This document shows, one piece after another, positions 1,004 to 19,118 of a stretch of DNA of 31,782 nt. The position numbers and the translations under genes were made by a program. Each line of letters opens with the position of its first letter. Within the stretch, counting starts at the first letter, position 1. The notes under the pieces are model-generated. The model was not told the DNA's origin and searched no databases. It worked only from the letters and a program-made list of their open reading frames with translations. This stretch comes from Rhizodiscina lignyota (taxonomy: Eukaryota): assembly GCA_010015805.1 (NCBI GenBank), contig ML978122.1, positions 558,001 to 589,782 on the forward strand. Reading direction: 5' to 3'.

Positions 1004-3403
1004 TCAACCACCTGAGATAACCAGTTTCGCAGCCCTGATGAACGCCTGAATCTTTTCGATACTTTGCTGTCCATCCTCTTCAACACCACTGCTCACGTCC
1101 ACACCGGCTATCCTCGGCTCAAGGTCCCCAAGCTGTGCTAACACATCTCTTACATTACCTGGATTCAGGCCGCCAGCAAGCAGCACATTAACACCTTCAT
1201 CTTTCTTCAGCGCCTCTTTAACCATAGTAAGATTGAGAGATGTTCCCGTGCCGCCAATACCTGAGTCAAAGAGCGCAAGTGAATGATATCCTCTCAAGCC
1301 CATACCAGGTTCTCCTGGAGCGAACCTTCGGATGACCGGTACCGGAATAAGATTTGCCCATTCCACAGGTTCAGAGCCGTGCAGTTGGACGACATCGAGG
1401 TTCAGTAGTTTCTGCTGCTCCAGAATATACTCCAGCGGCTGATCCAGAAATACGCCGACCAGGACTGCCCGGTCTGGATGATGGAAGAAGTTACTGGCAG
1501 TATACACGTTCCAGTTCGACGCCACGCCTCGGGGATTACTCAAAGGTTTCAATTTGTTTGTGCGATGCGGTTTGGGAGTAGAGTGTACTGTCTCAGAGAT
1601 GGCAATGGCGACTTCTCTTGAGACGCAGCGCTTCCGTCCAGTGACAAGGATCATACCAATGGCATCTGCGCCAGCCTCTATAGCAGCTTTTGCTGCCGCT
1701 GGTGAACGAGTGCCACAAATCTTGACAAGCAGTTCCTGTCGTTGCTTTGTATCAGGTTTGGAGTCCCCACCAAGAAGCTCGTAGATGAATTGGGTCGTGT
1801 CTGCAGCCCGCATTAGAGCCTCTCCCACAAGCACAGCACCGACACCATTCTTCTGATAAGGTTCGACATCTTTCGGGCCGGAAATTCCACTCAAGGCGCA
1901 CACGACAGTGTCCTCCGGTACCAAGCTCATGAGGCGGCTGGTGGTATCAAGGTCTACCTCGAAGTTGGTCAAATTTCGATTGTTGACGCCGATGACTTTT
2001 GAGCCCAAATTTACGGCGATGCGCATTTCATCGACCGTGTTCACTTCAACTAACGGCTCCATGCCCAGAGCCTGAGAGTAGAGGTACAACGATTTCAGGG
2101 TTGCCTCGTCCAGCATCTTTACGATGAGGAGAACAGTGTCGGCTCCAGCAAGTCGTGCTTCCAGAATTTGGTATTCATCGAAGATGAATTCCTTCCTCAG
2201 AACTGCCGGCCTATTTCGCATTCCTTGCAGGCTTTGACGAACTGCCCGAAGGTCGTCGATGCTTCCTTTGAACCACTCAGGCTCCGTGAGGACAGAGATG
2301 ACACTGGCTCCTGCTAAAGCATACGTCCTTGCTTGTGCTGGAGCACATGCTGTGAGCGAGATGATGCCTTTTGAGGGAGATGCGCGCTTGATCTCAGCCA
2401 TTAGCGATAGCCGATAAGGTGACTGCTTCAAACGCTCAGGGAAGGATATTTGCGGAGGCGCAAGATTCAAGTCGTACGACGCTTGGAAATCCGACGGTCG
2501 TTGTGATGGGATTTGCTTCTGGGCTTCAACTGCGGCTCTGCGATGATCGTAAATGCGCTCCAGGATGGAGGTCTTCTTGTCGGAGGTACTGGACCCATTG
2601 GATTTAGTTGTGGCGCCATCGACTCCATTTGCTGCACTCGCAGATTTCGATGTCGCCTGATTCAAGCGCTCATTCTCGGCCCAGGTTCCGCCCTTCATTT
2701 TGAGAAAGTTCTTGAGCATTGTGCGCCCCTCAACCGTCAAGATACTCTCGGGGTGAAATTGGACACCTTCGACCAAAAGTTCTTTGTGACGGATGCCCAT
2801 AATAACGCCCTTACCGCCATCCGGACCCGCTGCTACCCAGGATGACACTTCTAAGCACTCCGGCAAGGTCGGATGCGTTCCTGCCAGAGAGTGATACCTC
2901 GTAACAGGGATGTCCTGTGGTATGCTCTCGTAGACGCCTTTTCCATCATGCCGGAGCGGAGATGTCTTGCCATGCAAAATCTCTCCGGTCACGTCCACAT
3001 TACCGCCAAAAACTTCATATATGCATTGTCTGGATATATAGTGAGACAAATAATCGAAGAAAGGGCTGTTGGAAAATACATACTGTCCCATGCAAACGCC
3101 GAAAACTGGAATCTTCCCGCTGAAGTGCGCAATTGCATCTTTGCTGATTCCCGCATCGGTTTCAGGATGGCCGGGACCTGGGCTAATGACAAGCTGAGTG
3201 GGTTTCAAGGCAATGAGTTCATCCAGAGTGATCTCATCGTTCCGGTATACGGATACTGTAGCTCCTTCGAGCACGAAGTATTGGTACACATTCCAGGTGA
3301 AGGAGTCATAATTGTCAATCAGCACAAGATTCGACGCAGTAGCGACCGGCGCTGCTGCAGTCGGTTGGACTGCAGTCTGGTCTATAAGGTCCAATGCCGG
3401 CAT
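1004..3403 (-). CDS. trpC: Trifunctional tryptophan biosynthesis protein (anthranilate synthase component II GATase + IGPS + PRAI), ~781 aa
   Basis: GATase motifs [31 protein letters not shown] motifs [35 protein letters not shown] motifs [24 protein letters not shown]. One 54-nt in-frame intron at 3030..3083. First ATG is at 3403 (MPALDLID). Confidence 0.97.
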
Positions 3404-3980
3404 TCTGATGGATGAACGACAGACTGAGAGGTTATGGCAAAAATGAGACGAGCAATGGAAGATCCCAAAGCTGTAAGGGGGCAATACTCATCGGGCTTGG
3501 CACGTTTAAAAAGACAAATTCAACTCGGCGACCGACTTTCCACCGCGGTTATTCCGACATCGATCCGACGCATGCAGGGGCAAGTGCGCCACTTCAAGCC
3601 CTGAAGCCACAGGTACATAAGCCCAACCATCAACCAGCCGTCTCTCATTAGGGTATTCATCACTCACTTACGTCCTGCCACGCAACATGCACGGCGTATG
3701 GCGGACGATTCCATACACCTGCCTTAGCTCATGCTGTCTGCAGCCGCCGGACAGGCGTAATCAGTGGGCTCGATCGGGAAGGTTAGAGTCGCTTCTTCCC
3801 AAATTTGTTCCGTCTGACGAGAGGCAGCTGTGGTAAGTTGCGAGATTGCAGATCGCGTAAGAGGAAAAACCCTGACATTCCTTTACTTCTACGTCTCGCT
3901 TACAAGTTCTCGTTCCCAATATTTCCGTCGTCAAGTTATCTTCTAAACTATAACTTGGTTGAAGGAAGTCTTTAATCGCC

Positions 3981-5156
3981 ATGCCGAAGCTCGCTTACAT
4001 GAAGAACGACCCATCGGTCCTCTTAACAGTCTCGCAGACAGAAGTGGATGATGATCTAATTGAACTGCTCACCAGTGCGGTTCAGAAATTCCCACCGAGT
4101 GACGCCTGGAAGTCAGTAAGAGTTGGTGTTGGTGGGATATACTGCGGTCGGACAGGAGTGGCGTATTTGTTCATGAATGTCGACAAAACAAGGCCCAATC
4201 TCGAAATCGAAGGAAAACGTCCAATCCAATGGGCCGCTGCATATTTGTCTGGCGACCGAGAGCCGGAGCCGATAACAACGTTGTCATGCGGGATCTTCAA
4301 CGAGGAACTCAGCTTCTGCGCTGTAGCCGCAGCCTTCTACAAAGACACTGCATATGTGCAGAAGCTTCTCAAATACCTAGATGAGATTGTTTCTTCGAAT
4401 GAGGGCGCATTTGAGTACTGTTATGGACGTGCTGGACTTCTCTACCTGCTTCGTTTGGTCCGGTCGTGGTTCCCCGAATCAGCAGAACTCGTTAACCCAG
4501 GGATGGACTCGGTAATTGAGAATATAATGGCGAATGGCCCACCATGGATTCTTGACATGGGAGGAACGAATGACTTCGGGACTGTACGGTACGATTTTGT
4601 CGGGCCAGGGCACGGTCGGATGGGCATAATCGTACAAATATTGCTGAGTAATTCTACGTACGCCTCGAAACTTGAATCGGCGCTCATTGAGCTGCTGGAT
4701 ATCCAACAGGAGGACGGAAACTGGCCAGACCAGTGGCCCGGATCTCAAGCGTCTGAAAAGAACCGGCACCTTGTCCAGTGGTGTCATGGAGCCCCAGGAA
4801 TGGTGCAGTGTCTCGTTGCCATTCGTGAGTTTTTCCCACACCTGCAATCGAGAATCGATGATTCGATTGCGGAAGGAAGACGAATTACTTGGGAGAAAGG
4901 GCTCTTGATCAAAGAGCCCAACTTTTGTCACGGGACTACTGGAAATGCCTTTGCATTTCCGCCTGGCGAGAAAAGAGACCATTTCTTGGCGCACACTACC
5001 GAGCAAAGAGTGCAAGAAGGATATGCCGCTGGAGCCATTGAGAATTGTGATTATGGTATAACGTGGAGTGTTGCTTTTGGAGGCATAAGCCGAGCAGTCG
5101 GCTGGCTGTGGAGGGATAAAGAGCGAGGCTGCTACCTTGGCTTTGATGACGTCTAA
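3981..5156 (+). CDS. Lanthionine synthetase C-like (LanCL) protein, 391 aa, intronless
   Basis: LanC-like GxxG barrel repeats: GIYCGRTGVAY, EYCYGRAGLLYLLR, GPGHGRMGI (catalytic His), QWCHGAPG and NFCHGTTGNA (Zn ligands Cys, Cys, His). Confidence 0.92.
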   Translation: MPKLAYMKNDPSVLLTVSQTEVDDDLIELLTSAVQKFPPSDAWKSVRVGVGGIYCGRTGVAYLFMNVDKTRPNLEIEGKRPIQWAAAYLSGDREPEPITTLSCGIFNEELSFCAVAAAFYKDTAYVQKLLKYLDEIVSSNEGAFEYCYGRAGLLYLLRLVRSWFPESAELVNPGMDSVIENIMANGPPWILDMGGTNDFGTVRYDFVGPGHGRMGIIVQILLSNSTYASKLESALIELLDIQQEDGNWPDQWPGSQASEKNRHLVQWCHGAPGMVQCLVAIREFFPHLQSRIDDSIAEGRRITWEKGLLIKEPNFCHGTTGNAFAFPPGEKRDHFLAHTTEQRVQEGYAAGAIENCDYGITWSVAFGGISRAVGWLWRDKERGCYLGFDDV

Positions 5157-6425: not shown

Positions 6426-7598
6426 ATGGAGGGCCTCACGAGAACCCTTCCTGCTTCATGGTATCGCAGCGAGCCGCTGTATAAGCTCGAGCGGAGAGCT
6501 GTTTTCTTGAAGGTCTGCTTCTACTTCGCTTCCTCAGAGATGCGTTATAGTAGTATGCTAACTCAATGGTCCAGGCTTGGTACCTACTCGGACCCGTCAC
6601 GAAATTCACGAAAGTTGGAGAGGATGTTTCGTACGAGATGGCGCAGGTCAAGTTGACCGTTCGACGTTCTTCGGAGGATGTGAAGAGCATAAAGGTCTAT
6701 GCGGACGCCGATGTAGGTCTCTCTCGCGCCTAAGGGATAAAAGTGCAGGGCGATTGAGCTGTTATCGTAGGGTTCTGAGCTGCGGAGCCACTTGACGCGC
6801 ACCGGATTGCTCTTCTCTACCATTTCGGACGAAGCTGGACCCTTCGAGGAGTTCTTCCCGGACCTGGAGAAGCTTCTTGATCGCGTTGACTTCACAAAGC
6901 TTCCGCACAAGAGGAGCATCAAGTATCCAGGCGTCTTCAACTGGAAAACAATGTGAGTGTAGATGCATAGAACGTGAATCTCGCCGCTGACAGACGAAGG
7001 GTCGATGGATATCAGGAGTGCCTTCACTGCCAGTACACTCACCCAAGCTTTTCCGTGTACTACCCGCCGACAACGTATGCGGTAAAAGACTTCCAAAACT
7101 TTTCACAGCACATTGCAGATCCGGACAAGCCTGACGATGGATTGTTCTTGTACTTTTTCCCCAACTGTACTTTGAATGTGTACGGCGGCGGCATGTCCTC
7201 ATTCCGCGTCTGTCCAACCGAGGATCCCAATGTTACGCGGATGGAATTTGACTATTTCCATACGACGGACTCCCAAGAGGAGTTTGAGAAGTATTTTAAG
7301 TTCGTCCGGCAGGTCGCAATGGAAGACTTCGAGCTCTGCGAGAAAGCCCAAGAGAACCTACGAATTGGAATTTATACGGAAGGCATCCTGAACCCCAACA
7401 AAGAAAATGGCGTCTCTCGTACGTACACTAATTCGCTTGTGTGGACTCAACTGACTTCCGCATATAGACTATCAAAACAAAGTTCTCGAGCTCGTGACTG
7501 AGCAGTACAAGAAGGAAAAGGAGGCTGCGGAACCATCTATGCAAGCAGTTCCGCAGGAGATCCCCGTTCAGCCTGTTGTGGAACCTACAGGCGCATGA
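6426..7598 (+). CDS. Choline/carnitine monooxygenase-like Rieske oxygenase alpha-subunit homologue with catalytic domain only (no Rieske cluster motif), ~318 aa
   Basis: Exons 6426-6512, 6575-6712, 6771-6952, 7000-7418 and 7468-7598, all with GT-AG introns. Motifs LPASWY...LERRAVF, FNWKTMVDGYQECLHCQYTHP and EDFELCEKAQENL. There is no CxH...CxxH motif. Confidence 0.88.
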
Positions 7599-7979
7599 TA
7601 GCTGTCAACGTAGTGTTTGTGCCGTTGAGTCGATGATCCCGTGGTTCTTTCTAGTCCTTCATCCACGAGTCTGAGCATCTAATTTACGTTTCGTGCGACA
7701 GAAAATACTAGACCTTGTGGTGTTCCTGCTCTTCCTCCGCTCTCTGAATTTCCATCACGTACTTTATGGATCGCACTTCCAAATGCGGTATCCGTCTTGG
7801 CATGAGTAGTCAACAGGACCCTGGCTCAACGGTGGAGCTAAATTTGTCGATCGTATCCGCGAATCACACACTATCTTTACGTTATCTCCCACCATCTTTT
7901 TGTTTAAAGCATCTAGAAGCCTCTTTCCTACCCGCTTGTAGCTTTGTATTATCTTTCAGTTCCTGTCGATCCGCCCATC

Positions 7980-9464
7980 ATGTCGGACCTTATCGCCCTC
8001 CAGCCTCACATGATCTACATTCTCTTTGTTGTCTGCATCGCTTCAGTTTCATTGAACATCTACACGTATTTCGACAAGAAGAAAGCGAGTTCGCCTACAA
8101 ATACCACTCCACTTCTACCGCAGACCGACGATGTTGACGTTCACGTGACTAAAGAGCCAGAACTCCCATCAGGTTGGTGGAGAGATGAATCACAATTCCA
8201 ACTCGAGCGCCGCGCCATCTTCAGCAAGGTAGTGCGCCCGGTAAATTTGCCGTTGCTGCCACTGACCCATATAGACCTGGATTTGTGTCAGCCACCGTAG
8301 TCGCTTTGGAAAGCCCGGCGACTATGTCACCTTTGAGGTCGCGGGCTTCCCATTCTTTCTTATTCTCGGGAAGGATAGTGTTGTGCGAGCATTCCATAAC
8401 GTGTGCCGCCACCGAGCATACAGTGTAACCAAGAAGGCGGCTGGATCGTCTCTTGTGCTCGGCTGCAGATACCACGGCTGGAGTTACGATACAAGGGGCC
8501 GACTCACGAAGGCACCGGAGTTTGACAAAGTACCTGGCTTCGACAAGGCTCAGAACAGTTTATTCGAAATCCATGCGAGAGTCGACGCCCACGGTTTTGT
8601 CTATGTCAATTTGGACGCAAGCGAAGAAGCCGGTGACGGCGAATTGTGGGAAGTGACAAAAGTCGGCAAGCCGACAGAGATCAACCACGATTCTTGCTGG
8701 CTGCACTGCTGGGAGTTTAAAGGAAAGTTCAATTGGAAGGTTACAAGTAAGCAGAGAACCAAACTTTACTAGCTCTGGTCAACACTGATACGCAGGAAGC
8801 TCTTAATGTTGAGGGGAATACAGACGATGCATCACCTACGTTCGGTGGCCTTCCGACAAGTCGTTTCTTCCGAGCCCTTGAATCGTGTGGATACAGCATG
8901 ACAGGCCAGCTACGCTTCTTCCCTTTGGCCACGGTCTATACGAAGAACGGCAGTCCTTTTTGGTACAAGATAACCTTTTCCCCAGACTCACCAACGCAGA
9001 CAACCGTGTGGTGCGATGTGTACTCCACAAAATACACGAATGCATTCCGCTTCGAAGGCGCTGTCAAAGATGGCCTTGAGAAGGAGATGAAATCCAAGAT
9101 CCACGCCTTGGAGGAGCAATACGCAGAACTGGAAGCCTCGAACACGTTCCAGGAAGAGAGCGGTACGTTCTGTAATCAGCTGAAAGTGTCTTTGGAAGCC
9201 GCGCTAATTTCCTTTCCCTTCAGGGATCCAAGCAACGATCACTACCATGGTCAAAGAGCATTTGAAGAAGGAGAGAGCTGCAGGGGAGCAGATCCATCCC
9301 GCTGCCGTACAGCAGTGCAGGAGCTCTTCCTTTGCACAGGCAGAGAAGCGTAAGTGGAGCTTGCGAGATCCCCTCGGCACGTTACTAATTCCGTAATAGT
9401 ATGCCAGGAGCTTGATGCTGCTGGTGACAAATATCGACCGCGTGAAGACAGCTTGGCTTGGTAA
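7980..9464 (+). CDS. Rieske [2Fe-2S] oxygenase alpha-subunit homologue with N-terminal membrane anchor and degenerate catalytic domain, ~424 aa
   Basis: Exons 7980-8228, 8275-8746, ~8800-9162, 9224-9349 and 9400-9464; the second junction is uncertain (alternative intron 8740..8795). Motifs LERRAIFSK, FHNVCRHRA...GCRYHGWSY, FNWK, C-terminal LAW*. A hydrophobic stretch MIYILFVVCIASVSLNIYTYF lies near the N-terminus. Confidence 0.85.
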
Positions 9465-10576
9465 AGCTCCAGACATGCAGAGTAGTTTAAAGGAATTTCC
9501 TATGTTGCCAGCGTCTTCTTCTGGAGTTTACTAGACCTGCTCTTTTCGATGGCCAAGTCGGATGGTCATATGCCGCCTGCGGCCCCTTCAAGTGGACTTC
9601 GATTTATGAGTTTTGATGAACGGAATTGGACCGTTATTATCAATATCGAACCTTTACCATGGAGATATCGGACGAGAAAATGGAAATAGCTAAATAACAT
9701 TTCCGTTCCCTGGAATTTCCGTTCTAAGTGCGAGTCTGTTTCCTCTTTAAAGTGACTGCCGCCACGCCGGAGATCCGCCATGTTCTCAACTCCGGACCCT
9801 CCCACGCGTTCGTTTGGTCCACTTGTCGAACTCTCGAATAGCGCCACCGCTGCACTCAAATTCTTCCATGCTGTATTTTTGCTGCGCTTAGTAATCTCAA
9901 TTGGCACCTCGGTAGCATTTCTCCAAAGGCTACGGCTGAGCATGTCTTCAAGATAGCTTGGTGACATCAAGGAAGCGAACCGCATTCGGCAGTGGGCGCG
10001 CCCGCGATACCTCCTTTTGCCAGGACTCCGGTGCTCCAGCTTGGCAAAAGATAGAATAAATATGTTCTGATCTTGCTACTCGTATGACTAACGTATGTTC
10101 ACTCGTTTCGACCAATGGGGTGTATAGCGTTGCGACGGCGCAGCTGCACACCACTAACGCCTAGAATCTTTTTCTCCGATAGTGACATCACCGGGGTCAT
10201 GAGCTCCACAGCGCTCAGGCGAAGGCCTGAAAGCGTAGCAGCGGGCGAATCCTCCAATGATATCGCTTCTACCATCATCCAGCTGCAGTCGAAGTATCGG
10301 CTCATGCGAGTAGCTGTAAAGTCCGCCAGTCAAATTTGCACCCGCGGTACCACTGCACGGGCCTAAGACTGCTATGATACCAAATGATATAAAAGCAATA
10401 GGTTGACATCGTCCAGTGGGTCTCAACTTCCAAACACTCAAGCTCTCCTGCATATTTAAGTGCTTTCGATGTCCAAACTCCTCGAGAAGCTCCATCTCCA
10501 TCCAAAGCAGCACTCTAGTACCGATACACCCACATCAACTTCTCAGCCGACCTCATCCGAGCAATCTGAATCCGCA

Positions 10577-11828
10577 ATGGCATCCAATCTCCCAAAGACG
10601 TACAAGGCCGTCGTTATCGAAAAGGCCGGTGCCCCATGGACGATCAAAGATGTTGAACTCAAGATGCCGGAGCATGGCCAGATCCTCATCAAAGTTCACG
10701 CTTGTGGTGTCTGCCACAGCGATGCAGCTGCTCAAGCTGGTCATATGGGCCCTCGGTGAGTTAATGGCTCTCTAATTCTAAAGGCCCATTGTCCGTTTAG
10801 TTCTGCAAATTGTGAAAAGTCTCCAAGATATCATTAACATAGACTAACTTTTCATATTAGCACGAAATTCCCTCTCATTCCTGGGCACGAAGTCATTGGC
10901 ACTGTTGCCGCGGTTGGCCCCAATGAGCGTAAATGGAAAGAAGGCGAGCTCGTGGGTGGACCTTGGCATGGTGGTCACGACGGCATATGCAAGACTTGCA
11001 TGAGAGGCGATTACCAGATGTGCGACACCGAAGAAATCAACGGCGTTACAAGAGATGGCGGTTACGCACAGTACTGTATCCTTCGGTCTGAAGCTGTTGT
11101 TCGCCTACCTGAGGGAATTGACCCGGCTGAGTACGCTCCACTGCTCTGGTAAGCATCTCCAACCGTACGAAGACGAAAATGCGAAATGCTCATTGATTTT
11201 CAGTGCTGGTGTGACAGTCTTCAATGGTATACGCAAGCTCAACATCCGACAAGGTGGCACCATCGCGGTTCAAGGTCTCGGAGGTCTCGGCCACTTAGCC
11301 CTCCAATATTCACGCAAAATGGGTTACCGCACAGTGGCGCTTTCTTCCTCGGATGCGAAGCGTGACTTTGCCATGAAGTTGGGAGCCACGGACTACGTCG
11401 ATGGAAGCAAAGAGGATGCGGCAACAGCACTTCAGAAGCTTGGTGGAGCCGATCTAGTGGTTATTACCGCACCAAACCCGACGATTATGGGCCCATTGCT
11501 GAACGGCTGTGCACCAAGAGGGAAAGTTCTGATCCTTGCTCGTACGTATCTCCGATTTCCTTGATGCTAGCTTCGGTTCTATGAACTGACCATTGCTACA
11601 GCCGTCGGTGATGTTCCTGTCAGTACGATCGCAATGATTGGAAAAGGACTCTCAGTCCACGGGTGGCCGTCGGGTCATGCCGTCGATTCCGAGGATGCCA
11701 TTGCTATGGCGCAGGAACAAGGAATCAAGGTCATGATTGAGAAGTTCCCCTTAGAGAAGGTTGCCGATGCGGTGCAGCATATGCTGACCAGTAAGGTGCG
11801 ATTCCGGGCTGTTTTGACAATGGATTGA
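10577..11828 (+). CDS. Zn-dependent medium-chain alcohol dehydrogenase (CAD-like), ~343 aa; an upstream in-frame ATG at 10469 is possible
   Basis: Exons 10577-10755, 10861-11148, 11204-11541 and 11602-11828. Motifs CGVCHSD, PGHEVIG, DGICKTC...C, LLCAGVTVFN, GLGGLGH. Confidence 0.93.
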
Positions 11829-14025: not shown

Positions 14026-14339
14026 TGAATACTGTCTATATCGATGTGTGGCATCAGCACTCGTCATGTAAGATAAGAACTTCGATGTTCTCCTTGATGG
14101 CACAGAAAATTCAATCTTACAGGCGACAGCGCTAGGACTATTTCGGTTGGCGGCCTTTATCGTATCCCTGGTTTGGGAAGAACGCTAATTGGCCACCCTA
14201 CCGAGATATCCTCCTTGTATATCTACCGCCTTGAACCTCAAACTCAGCCTCCGCTGTGACCCTACATATTGTCGAAGCTGCTCTGAAATCACCATGATAG
14301 CTTTCCTCTTCATGGTCGCTCCTTGGCAAAGGAGTAGCC

Positions 14340-16502
14340 ATGAACGAGAACTCTCATTTCAACCAGACATATGATTTGGACTCCTTTCATCTGTTAAGCC
14401 CTTCACTCTTAGATGCCCATCAGTTAAACTCGTCCCCCACGACGCAAGACCCATTTGGTATCGCCGCGGGTCTTCATGTTAGCTCATTCGAATTGCTTGA
14501 TGAGAGCTTTGTACCGGGATTAGCAGCTCCACCAGATGGCTCTCCGAGCCACGGCCCGCCAATCGCGTCTCAGTGGGAAAGCCTCAATTACATTGCCGCA
14601 TCTGCAGGGCATGAGGATGAGCGCAAAGAGGGTCTTAGGACTAACAGAGAAGAAAAGAACAATGAAGAAGTCGATACCGCAGTTCCATCTTCTGGAAACA
14701 ACAGTGGCCTTGCGAATCCGTCCCACGCACCAGGCCTGTCCCACTTCGACGATCTCTCCATCGATCCGAAGCTCACGCTCCTGGACGCAGAAACTGATGT
14801 ACTTGGTGGGACTTCTCTTAACAAACACAGCGACGGAGCAGCTCTCGAGCTGACTGTTGCGCTCCCCGCCCGCGAGAAGAACTGTGGAAAAATAGAACTA
14901 CCCAAAGGAGCAAAGACCAAGAAGCGTCGAAACAGGCTCCCAGAGAGAGCAAAGGATCAACTAAAAGCGTGGTTTGATGTTCATAGTGATTCTCCGTACC
15001 CCTCTACAAAAGAGGCTACAGAACTGGCGGATAGAACCGGTACCACCTTCCAGCAGGTGAAGACGTGGTTCAATAACACTAGGTCACGACTCATACCAAG
15101 ACGTACGTATTTTGTATATTAGTCCATACGCTTGCCATGGTAAGATAATAACAAAAGCGCTGCAGATAAGCCAGAGATACCCCAACATCCTGCGTTGACC
15201 TCTTCGGCTTTGGAGACCGTGTCAAAGGCATCGGGTAGCAACCACTCTCTGGATTCTATCAGACGGTTCCTACATGATCCACGGAATCCCGCCGAGATCG
15301 ATCTTGTGGAGAATTCTTCACTATCAGCGCTACCCGAGACAGACACGAGGCCTGCCCAGTTGAGCGAGCCGTCTTTGTGGCCTGCTGGTACCCAGCAAAC
15401 CAAGGCTATCTCTGTGGCCGACAGCGATCACCTCTCTATGTTTTCTCGCAAATCTGCATTTTCACGCAAATCTGCATTTTCAAGTAAGAGCAATATCTCT
15501 GGAAGATCTTACTTTTCCTGTAAATCTTGGATATCCTCCGGTTCCTGCCAGAGCGGAAAACTTTCTGTTGTGAGTGGCATTACTCGGCGAAGAGGAAAGC
15601 GCCAGTACTCCCGAACGATGTCTAAAGTCTCACGAAGTGCCTCCAAGTTTCCATGCACTTTTTGCTCGATCGGTTTCGATAACGAATGGAACTGGAAGCG
15701 CCACGAAAGCACTCATGTCCCCCTTGCTGATAAGTGGATTTGCATGCCCGACAACACTCCAATCGAAAATACGATCTGCCTCTTTTGCCACTTGGGCCCT
15801 ACGAGTCTCGATCCTTCTCATCTCGAGGAACACAATGTGAATTTCTGCTGCTCAAAGCCGCTTGGAGAGAGAACGTTTGGAAGAAAAGACCTACTCCAGC
15901 AACACATCGATCTCATCCATCGAAAGGGTAAGGGAAAGACGGTTAATAGTAAAGTTGTCAGCACACTCTTGGCTGGATGGCATCAAGAGGCAACACTATC
16001 TGAATTTCACGACATGCCAGACGCGTTGTGGTGTGGTTTCTGTCACAAATTCATCAACTCCTGGAAAGAACGATTGCGACACATTGAGAATCATTTTTGG
16101 AACGGACGATCAATAGAAGCATGGAAACCGCTTTTTACTGACCCAGGAAATGACCGAAGATACATCAGGTGGAATGACGCTCTCGAAGTTTTCACATGGG
16201 CATTCGATGTTGTCGAAGAAAGAATCCTAGATGAACTCAAATCTGCCGTTGCCTCAAATGATTTGTGCGATCTGAAGCCCCTGTGGAAGAGGCTTGAACA
16301 TATCCGCAACCTAATGCCTTGGGAAGATCTAAGTCATGTGCCCGAAACAACCTATCATTTCTGGGATGTACTCGAAACGATGGCTAACATTTCATATCCG
16401 CGACGCGCAGTCTGTTCTGAACTTCTCGGTTACGCGATTAGAATTTCTCCTAACCCAGGCATTTTAGAACACTGGAAACGAGAATTCGGCGGAACCTTGT
16501 AG
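14340..16502 (+). CDS. TALE-type homeobox plus C2H2 zinc-finger transcription factor, ~699 aa
   Basis: Intron 15103..15165 joins the two ORFs in frame. Homeodomain RRNRLP...LKAWF..H...PYPS...QVKTWFNNTRSR. Zinc fingers FPCTFC..F....NWKRHESTH, W.C...C..C...H...H, TF.RKD.L.QH...H and CGFC...W.ERL.HI..HF. Confidence 0.92.
15441..15482 (+). repeat. 18-bp coding tandem duplication (FSRKSA x2 plus a partial unit)
   Basis: ttttctcgcaaatctgca ttttcacgcaaatctgca ttttca. Confidence 0.8.
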
Positions 16503-17048: not shown

Positions 17049-17614
17049 CTATCCATTGAGTGGGTTCTCAGTCTCCTCCAAAATGCCCTCCTTCACCAAG
17101 GCATCCGGCTTCGGCCGGCTCTGCAAGTGCTTGTCCAAACTGTCCCTACGCATCTGCTTCTCGAGCTCTCGCTGGTTCGCAACAATTCCTGGTGCCGCAT
17201 TCGAGTCGGGGAGGATATTACCTGTTCGTAAAACGGTCAGCCTATGCATCCTCACAATCTCACATCCTCCTCCCACTCTCTCCCCCACCTCCAACTACTG
17301 GAATCAAACACCACAGGGGGAAAGAGGTGCAACTCACGCTCCACAAGCGTATCCCGGTCCATCCTCTTCTCCAGCCCCTTCTTCAAGTTATCCGTCGCGA
17401 GCTGCCGCTCCAGCTCAATCTGCTTGCTCTGCAGCGCGGGCGCGGCGCTCGTGTCGAGCAGGATATTGCGGTTCTTCAGGTCCTGCGCCTCGGGGCGGTG
17501 CTGCAGGTGCTTCTCCAGCGAGTACCGGCGCTGCATGCCCTCGCGGACGGGCGAGATGGGGCTCTCGTCGACGGCGGGCTCGGCGGTTGTGGAGATGGGG
17601 TCGGTGGAGGCCAT
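17049..17614 (-). CDS. Small RPEL-repeat protein, ~149 aa
   Basis: Exons 17614-17338 and 17221-17049 (intron GTGAGT...CTGAC...CAG). Three RPEL-like repeats: LEKHLQHRPEAQDLKNRNIL, LKKGLEKRMDRDTLVERNIL, LDKHLQSRPKPDALVKEGIL. Confidence 0.9.
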
Positions 17615-19118
17615 GATGTTAGAGTTTGGGGTGACTGTGGGGTTCTTGGAGGGTTGGTTGTTTGGAAATAAGCTGTGAGAGGACGGAGAGCTTGTTATGT
17701 TGGAGCTTCGGAGCTTGGTGGAGGGTCGAGTGGGAGCTTCGAGGGACAGCTGCACTCCGCAAAGGGAAGGCTGTGCTAGCGGGTATGACGCAGTAGCGCG
17801 GCCGTTGATCTCGTGGGGTGATCGTGCGGCTCGAACTTGGAACGATGACAACAGCGGCTTGTTCGATTCGACCAAGCTTTGAGAGCCGTGACGTTGTGCT
17901 TTCTCTCACAACTCAGCGGCACCAAGGACTTGAAGTTTACATATCAGATCACGCGCCTGAGTCGTTGCTTTGTTTCCCTCGTGCCAGTCGTGCATGCAGG
18001 GATTTGCGGGGCAACGAGCAACAACGCATAACGGGCAGGGATCAGGCGTAGTCAGGCACGACGAGTTGGTAAATTTAGAAGAGAAAATTCTGCAAGTGTC
18101 GAGCCAAATCTTATAGATACACTTGGAATTTCGTATTATCTCAAGGTGCCCAGTACGACTTCGCGGAAGAGGTTGTTGTTCAGGGGGAGAGTGTGCATTT
18201 CTGCGAACATTGGCGTACACACATCTAGAGTTGGGATAGAGGTTGCTTCTCCGATGCTTAAATGCTTACTCGGGAGCAGTTTGGGCTAGAGAAAGGGCTC
18301 TTTCGACTTGATGAGAATACGGAATGAAAATCTGCCATCCCTGCACATGGATCTCTATGCTTTGGACCGGCAATGTGCGGAGAGATTATATTTCACATTC
18401 CGGCCTGATATCATAACCTCTGCGGAGTGGTCATTGCCAAAATCTTCCATTTTTCAAAGCTCAGCCTGTTGGCTGGTGTATGGGATATCCAAAGCGCTGT
18501 TAGCCCAGCGTCGACGCTAGGCTTCCGCGATGCATGCATGATCGCTATGCAAGTTGACTACTAGAGTATAAAAAGGTAGGTGAGAAATTTTTAAATCTAA
18601 CTTCATTACGCCCAGACATGCTCATAGCTCATTACCCCAGCCGCTCTACGCCGTAGAGCTACACGCCGGCGCAGTGATGGTGGTCGCTGCCGAAGTGACG
18701 GTCTCGGAGCACTTCACGACGGGTCCGGCACCTTCGTTGACGGTCGTCAGAGCACAGCCCTTGCAGTCGGTGTAGCGAGGAACAGTATGAGTAGACTTGT
18801 AATGCGTGCAAGTGCCGTCCGCAATGTTCTGGAATGGAATGCGTTCGATAGCGGTGACCGTGCAAGTCGGGCTGGGAGAGCAGATGTCGACGGTTGCGGT
18901 GGCGATGCCGCGGACAGTGGTCTTCTCCTCGCAGGGCTACAAAATAATGTCAGTAACATTCCGACTTTAAGATGGCAGCGAGGAGGCTTACGATGCCAAC
19001 GCCGAGCTCGCGAGTGGTGAGAGCGCAGCCGCCGCAGTCGGTGAACTTGCTGAATGTGATGGTGGATGACAAGAAGGTGCAGTCCGTCTGGATCGGCGGC
19101 TGCTTAAGCAGGGTCTTT

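Follow-up and report, generated by a model that had tools for sequence, protein, structure and literature searches.

The window analysed here is a stretch of 31,782 nucleotides from the fungus Rhizodiscina lignyota (assembly GCA_010015805.1, contig ML978122.1, forward-strand positions 558,001 to 589,782). It carries two adjacent genes, designated A and B, which each encode part of the metal apparatus of a Rieske oxygenase alpha subunit: A retains the mononuclear iron site without the [2Fe-2S] cluster, whereas B retains the cluster without the iron site. We describe the pair, follow it across fungi and weigh the proposal that the two products are complementary subunits of one enzyme.

Gene A (6426-7598, forward strand; spliced model, PF00848), the proposed cluster-less catalytic subunit, comprises five exons (6426-6512, 6575-6712, 6771-6952, 7000-7418 and 7468-7598) that encode 318 residues in an open frame and are separated by four GT-AG introns of 62, 58, 47 and 49 nt. 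Exon 4 matches Ring_hydroxyl_A (PF00848) in Pfam with an E-value of 1.5e-14 and contains an iron-site motif (7010-7042, forward strand), D138-G-Y-Q-E142-C-L-H145-C-Q-Y-T-H150, complemented by E244-D245. Alignment of an orthologue to the carnitine oxygenase CntA, read with PMC7948474 and PMC10952381, assigns Y140 to the cation-pi tyrosine position, E142 to the bridging glutamate, C143 and C146 to the group V cysteine pair, and H145 and H150 to the iron ligands. D245 (7325-7327, forward strand) is the carboxylate iron ligand, at the position of CntA Asp323 and in a column that is invariant in the A-type alignment. The iron site and bridging glutamate that the original prediction had recognised in A are borne out by these residues.

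The same prediction had A missing a cluster-binding subdomain of about 50 residues. The stretch from YEMAQ to TGLLF spans 37 residues in A against 86 in the matching stretch of B, so 49 are missing from A, and these would hold all of the Rieske ligands. Intron 2 of A (6713-6770, forward strand) lies within the site of the missing subdomain; at 58 nt it is too short to conceal 49 codons, which rules out a hidden Rieske exon.

Gene B (7980-9464, forward strand; spliced model, PF00355) begins after a spacer of 381 nt read from the sequence between the A stop and the B start (7599-7979). Its five exons (7980-8228, 8275-8746, 8800-9162, 9224-9349 and 9400-9464), interrupted by introns of 46, 53, 61 and 50 nt, form an open frame of 424 residues; an alternative acceptor 24 nt further on (8824) is also open and would give 416 residues. 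Exon 2 matches the Pfam Rieske domain (E 2.9e-18) and supplies the [2Fe-2S] ligands C127, H129, C147 and H150 (8404-8475, forward strand). Exon 3 (8800-9162, forward strand) has no Pfam match but is 98% matched by an NCBI protein assigned to Rhizodiscina lignyota; when the profiles of A and B are compared, 276 columns align at a probability of 98.9%, the C-terminal domain of B among them, which identifies exon 3 as a catalytic-fold domain, one devoid of iron ligands. Where A has the E-D ligand helix motif, B reads SKIHALEE (residues 339-346; 9093-9116, forward strand), and [ED]xxHxxxxH is absent from all three forward frames of 24 B genes, including that of the window, in agreement with the earlier reading of B as a protein with CxH...CxxH and no ExxHxxxxH. 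A public model of B (P0121) takes a different donor behind FNWK and reads on into the final intron; it was rejected because the B donor position and the C-terminal Trp are conserved in orthologues.

Two features of B, together with the head-to-head arrangement seen in other fungi, extend the original prediction. B has a predicted N-terminal membrane helix at approximately residues 11-29 (8010-8066, forward strand; hydropathy 2.04 over 19 residues), which would place the protein at a membrane. Hydropathy of at least 1.6 is reached at the N-terminus of 80 of 104 B-type proteins, several Pleosporales models having no such stretch, and the model of the Aspergillus niger orthologue has its N-terminal helix at residues 8-39. 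At its other end, B terminates in Leu-Ala-Trp and a stop codon (9453-9464, forward strand), resembling the cytosolic Fe-S targeting tripeptide with a middle residue that departs from the strict [LIM]-[DES]-[WF] consensus. A C-terminal Trp or Phe is found in 81 of 106 B-type proteins (41 with the strict consensus) versus 2 of 103 A-type proteins. According to 10.1101/2023.05.19.541488, such a tripeptide recruits cytosolic Fe-S delivery, as reported for fungal choline monooxygenases, and disappears where the cluster ligands are lost.

As had been claimed, both frames are open with canonical introns and two intron positions are shared, one in phase 0 after ERRAxFxK and one in phase 1 two codons ahead of a Gln; this Gln shares one column when A and B are aligned with a canonical fungal relative. 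A third intron follows FNWK at +5 nt in A and +7 nt in B, that is, 2 nt apart; the B position recurs in many orthologues.

To place these proteins among fungal sequences, exon 4 of A was used as a query, which returned 270 proteins at E<=1e-10, and a B query returned 1429; the best 120 of each were examined, and the counts given here describe these top matches and are not a census. The A matches include 103 proteins of fewer than 500 residues with PF00848 only, from Eurotiomycetes, Dothideomycetes, Leotiomycetes and Sordariomycetes, with 74-86% identity over exon 4; the B matches include 106 new proteins of fewer than 520 residues. ExxHxxxxH and the E-D motif (ED-x-x-LC) are present in all 103 A-type proteins. 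The Rieske motif is present in 104 of the 106 B-type proteins, and ExxHxxxxH in none. Pfam detects a Rieske domain in 0 of 67 aligned A sequences versus 70 of 70 aligned B sequences, nine of the latter also giving a weak catalytic-domain match. The flank-to-flank spacing is 35-50 residues in A-type proteins (76 measurable of 103) and 86 residues in 61 of the 62 measurable B-type proteins (of 106). E142 is invariant across the 67 A sequences, and the group V pattern, a cation-pi Tyr two residues ahead of the bridging Glu and a Cys pair by the iron His, occurs in 102 of 103 A-type proteins. An A-type match to the Rieske pattern (P0091) proved spurious, as it sits in a C-terminal retained intron. 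A canonical single-chain enzyme has both metal sites in one polypeptide; A lacks the cluster and B the iron, and only the pair together provides both. Neither protein is an equivalog of GbcA, since A and B orthologues score 42-101 bits against the curated model, whose cut-off is 670.

Cluster-less proteins related to choline monooxygenase (CMO) also exist outside these sets. Among yeasts, Priceomyces, Ascoidea and Ambrosiozyma have A-type proteins of greater divergence, and further cluster-less CMO-like proteins (P0264, P0273, P0277, P0279, P0288, P0300, P0308, P0310, P0319, P0330 and P0350) are scattered over the tree in monoblepharids, basidiomycetes and ascomycetes. Four of this set retain the terminal Trp, so some may be gene-model errors. 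A bacterial cluster-less CMO-like protein of 295 residues (L087:5001-5888; also L078-L086) was found mostly in actinobacterial genome bins.

We examined the linkage of the two genes in a metagenome scan that yielded 77 loci, falling into 53 groups at 95% identity, 18 of which end too near A to judge. The original prediction implied that A and B should stay syntenic, and B adjoins A in 32 of the 35 informative groups (14 head-to-head, 17 in tandem and one in tandem by partial match); in addition, four A/B pairs have consecutive locus tags. Because B lies beside A in both orientations and the other neighbours change, the pair has stayed together through inversion. None of the window's eight neighbouring open reading frames (ORFs) has a match in any of the 77 loci, and no conserved third linked gene was detected by Pfam annotation of 124 of the 191 long ORFs of 22 loci or by all-against-all comparison, in which sharing was confined to close relatives. 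In one case the two genes have decayed together, both being degraded in L075/L076. L053 is devoid of ~1.75 kb that is found in L028 and contains the 5' ends of both genes, which is either real or an assembly fault. An intron-rich lineage (L067, L071-L073 and L077, with A at ~7900-9250) offers a natural test case for A working alone. An amino-acid permease is encoded near the pair in three of 22 loci (L043:5214-7022, L050:3020-4339 and L061:2582-3487), which is weakly suggestive of a link to the metabolism of amines or amino acids.

Both genes are under purifying selection between species, with ratios of nonsynonymous to synonymous substitution rates (dN/dS) below 1 in all regions compared, as the original prediction would have it. 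The ratio is 0.01-0.03 for the A catalytic exon (three closest between-species pairs), 0.17 for the B Rieske exon (one unsaturated between-species pair) and 0.17, 0.17 and 0.22 between species for the B ligand-less domain, for which nine pairs were compared and three saturated ones excluded. Mean column identity is 31% in the B ligand-less domain versus 57% in A.

Structural models of the two A. niger orthologues (pLDDT, the predicted local distance difference test score, 80.1 and 84.0) both match whole Rieske alpha subunits and show the alpha-subunit fold, which consists of a Rieske domain and a Bet v1-like catalytic domain. CntA, stachydrine demethylase and 3n0q are the top rows for both models. 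The B model reaches Z scores of 29.8-28.1 in these rows (at 29.8, the root mean square deviation, rmsd, is 2.5-2.6 over 306-308 aligned residues), and the A model Z scores of 24.1-22.8 (at 24.1, the rmsd is 3.0 over 270 aligned residues), where salicylate 5-hydroxylase ties at 23.5. In the Protein Data Bank, the best sequence match of both proteins is again CntA, whose fold they match at Z 24.1 (A) and 29.2 (B). As described in PMC7948474, the cluster of CntA and the iron within the same subunit are 44 Å apart, and the iron of the neighbouring subunit is at 12.2 Å, with Glu205 of that iron-bearing subunit as the bridge. By a hand count on the alignment, A keeps CntA Tyr203, Glu205, Cys206, Cys209, Tyr225, Asn270 and Asp323; Tyr295 and Tyr315 are Phe in A, and Phe258 and Phe319 are not kept. 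CntA is the product of one gene, forms an alpha3 homotrimer and has a linked reductase, CntB, whereas the fungal A and B are encoded by two genes.

Phylogenetic analysis placed both proteins within the same fungal clade of two-domain CMO-like proteins, to which Scheffersomyces stipitis Cmo1 may also belong and in which the C-terminal Trp is conserved; unlike A and B, these proteins unite both metal sites in a single chain. The catalytic-domain tree (65 rows) gathers its 13 A-type rows into a single clade among fungal CMO-like proteins (98 in the SH-like approximate likelihood ratio test, SH-aLRT). In a Rieske-region tree of 56 rows, the 16 B-type rows form one clade (100/100) within the same fungal group (100/99). 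As both are nested there, we infer that A and B derive from fungal CMO-like ancestors. Their origin from a single duplication is unproven; the joint tree did not recover an A+B clade, and forcing one is not rejected (approximately unbiased (AU) test, p=0.237). Two cluster-less proteins, P0257 (Trichomonascus ciferrii) and P0259, share a group (98/93) with P0322, which is iron-less and Rieske-bearing and ends in L-A-W; these sequences probably represent a second, independent reciprocal split. The B of the window groups with Hypocreales and Coleophoma B (98/97), and the best matches of A are from Botryosphaeriales and Eurotiales, a mismatch for which hidden paralogy or transfer are possible explanations.

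Taken together, the comparisons lead us to regard A and B as probably the complementary subunits of one heteromeric group V (CntA/CMO-like) Rieske oxygenase, in which B would pass electrons to A. This is the simplest account of the exact complementarity of the two proteins, their constant adjacency and joint loss, the invariant bridging Glu of A and the restriction of the Trp to B. In the proposed mechanism, B would receive its [2Fe-2S] cluster in the cytosol through the C-terminal Trp, and an unlinked reductase would give electrons to B, perhaps at a membrane through the N-terminal helix. The cluster tip of B would then dock on the catalytic domain of A, and E142 would relay electrons to an Fe(II) held by H145, H150 and D245. 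The cluster subdomain, which A does not have, makes up one side of the contact between ring subunits; a plain alpha3 ring would therefore be less likely than a mixed-subunit ring or an AB dimer. The pocket of A fits an amine-type substrate, and its 74-86% identity over four fungal classes suggests a single substrate common to them. Our leading candidate, tentatively advanced, is a small amine, quaternary or N-methylated, that would be oxidised by dealkylation. The division of labour put forward in the original prediction is well supported by the complementary, conserved and adjacent forms and by their purifying selection; its derivation of the two genes from one duplication may or may not hold, the joint tree neither pairing A with B nor rejecting such a pair.

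Several observations weigh against this proposal. The joint tree (266 shared columns) places B with canonical paralogues (96/98) and not with A; its canonical rows were picked by likeness to A, a possible bias. Three locus groups, all from the single lineage L067, L071-L073 and L077, have A without B within 4.7-8 kb on either side, where only the flanks were searched. The catalytic-domain tree has Rieske-less CMO-like proteins arising on many occasions (15 rows, with three or more forced changes), and the bacterial cluster-less gene of L087 has a canonical Rieske alpha subunit (755-1942) 3 kb upstream, with no iron-less partner seen there; cluster-less subunits may therefore have other donors. 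In the close group L039/L047/L048, the dN/dS of the B ligand-less domain is 0.42-0.81 on 5-7 synonymous changes, and ~1 on an 80-codon piece. Finally, two of the seven CntA pocket residues are not kept in A, so its substrate differs or binds otherwise.

The alternative that survives best, which we nevertheless consider unlikely, is that there is no stable A-B enzyme, and that B serves instead as a dissociable ferredoxin-like carrier for A, or mixed rings form in which a canonical CMO-like protein is the third subunit that A and B each associate with. Canonical CMO-like paralogues do exist in ascomycetes (Fusarium, Colletotrichum and Leptodontidium), the bacterial arrangement just described would suit a third subunit, and the ligand-less domain of B evolves much faster than A. 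However, B retains a whole alpha-subunit fold of 300 residues under between-species purifying selection, which is beyond the needs of a carrier, and the constant neighbour of A is B, no canonical subunit having turned up in the scanned loci.

Somewhat less probable still is that A has no need of B and receives its electrons from cytochrome b5 or a small reductant, with B acting separately, for example as a membrane redox sensor, and the linkage reflecting shared regulation. The three groups in which A has no adjacent B, the recurrence of cluster-less forms for which no partner is known (in yeasts, basidiomycetes and monoblepharids), and the promoter region common to head-to-head pairs are consistent with such independence. 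Shared regulation nonetheless leaves the exact complementarity of losses and the joint decay unexplained, and E142, a residue known for cluster-to-iron transfer between subunits, is invariant in the 67 aligned A sequences.

We find it very improbable that the two genes yield one A-B fusion by read-through splicing, or a canonical enzyme in which the B Rieske exon is spliced to the A catalytic exons. This idea draws on 21 public models that run the two proteins together in a single chain, A leading every time, and 17 of the 120 A matches are such A+B models of 587-820 residues, from Eurotiales, Onygenales, Pleosporales and Venturiales. Yet in 16 of 17 tandem loci (the other being unresolved) the last exon of A ends in a stop ahead of B, and the A+B models most likely reflect two adjacent genes that annotation has merged. 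Moreover, the genes of 14 locus groups lie head-to-head on opposite strands, A. niger has been annotated both ways, and an A-then-B exon order cannot yield a canonical chain by cis-splicing. That both genes are duplicates in decay, or that assembly or annotation has produced an artefact, deserves next to no credence: one decayed pair exists (L075/L076), but the open frames, hundreds of conserved orthologues and between-species dN/dS far below 1 refute it.

Precedents for a split between chains are known. In Micromonas, chlorophyllide a oxygenase (CAO) is encoded by one gene with a mononuclear-iron motif and one with a Rieske cluster, both required, according to 10.1101/2025.02.10.637544 and PMC9615114. 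The complementary two-gene distribution of metal sites in A and B is of this MpCAO1/MpCAO2 type, the Micromonas pusilla heterodimer whose activity is explained by electron transfer between subunits. That heterodimer is a green-algal plastid enzyme of another Rieske subfamily with a known substrate, whereas the fungal pair is CntA/CMO-like, presumably cytosolic and conserved in its linkage, with a predicted membrane helix and a Trp on the cluster subunit. The methylxanthine N7-demethylase NdmC resembles A in being a cluster-less catalytic subunit fed by a Rieske domain on another chain, that of NdmD (PMC10380055). There, the donor domain forms part of the reductase NdmD, to which it is fused, and the GST-like NdmE is needed (PMC10380055); in contrast, the candidate donor B is a dead paralogue of full length that lacks a reductase domain, and the pair has no linked third gene. 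These precedents make the split principle one that is already known. A literature search found no description of the fungal A/B pair, most subscription journals lying outside its reach, and a 2025 review of Rieske oxygenases contains no word that begins with 'fung'. Among relatives, Cmo1 is required for growth on choline as nitrogen source and is described as biochemically uncharacterised in PMC6157903 and PMC5816127; the former also presents fungal CMO-like proteins as uncharacterised and without three residues proposed for choline binding.

The remaining genes of the window are, for the most part, ordinary neighbours of the pair: a trifunctional trpC identified with Pfam (1004-3487, reverse strand), a zinc-binding alcohol dehydrogenase (10407-11564, forward strand), a homeobox gene of the KN type followed by a C2H2-like stretch (14301-16502, forward strand) and an RPEL-repeat ORF (17252-17905, reverse strand). 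The trifunctional trpC and the short GT-AG introns mark the DNA as fungal. A LanC-like gene without introns (3963-5156; PF05147, E 7e-27) lies between trpC and gene A, and was not found adjoining an A/B pair elsewhere in the all-against-all locus comparison.

A wider conjecture, possible but in our judgement doubtful, is that such splits have arisen more than once in fungal CMO-like oxygenases (A/B and P0257/P0259-P0322), and that the ascomycete B acts as a membrane-anchored input coupling a soluble A to an endoplasmic-reticulum reductase for an unrecognised, conserved step of amine metabolism. More directly, the heteromeric oxygenase proposed here gives a testable identity to two large fungal families, currently labelled in databases as 'choline monooxygenase, chloroplastic' or 'Bet v1-like protein' for A and as 'Rieske/ISP domain protein' for B. 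If it is correct, neither protein would work alone, so that single-gene expression tests would fail and co-expression would be needed. With its metal sites on separately mutable chains, the pair would provide a natural system for the study of electron transfer between subunits, and would also be suited to testing the role of the C-terminal Trp in cytosolic [2Fe-2S] delivery, a question that 10.1101/2024.01.15.575444 leaves open.

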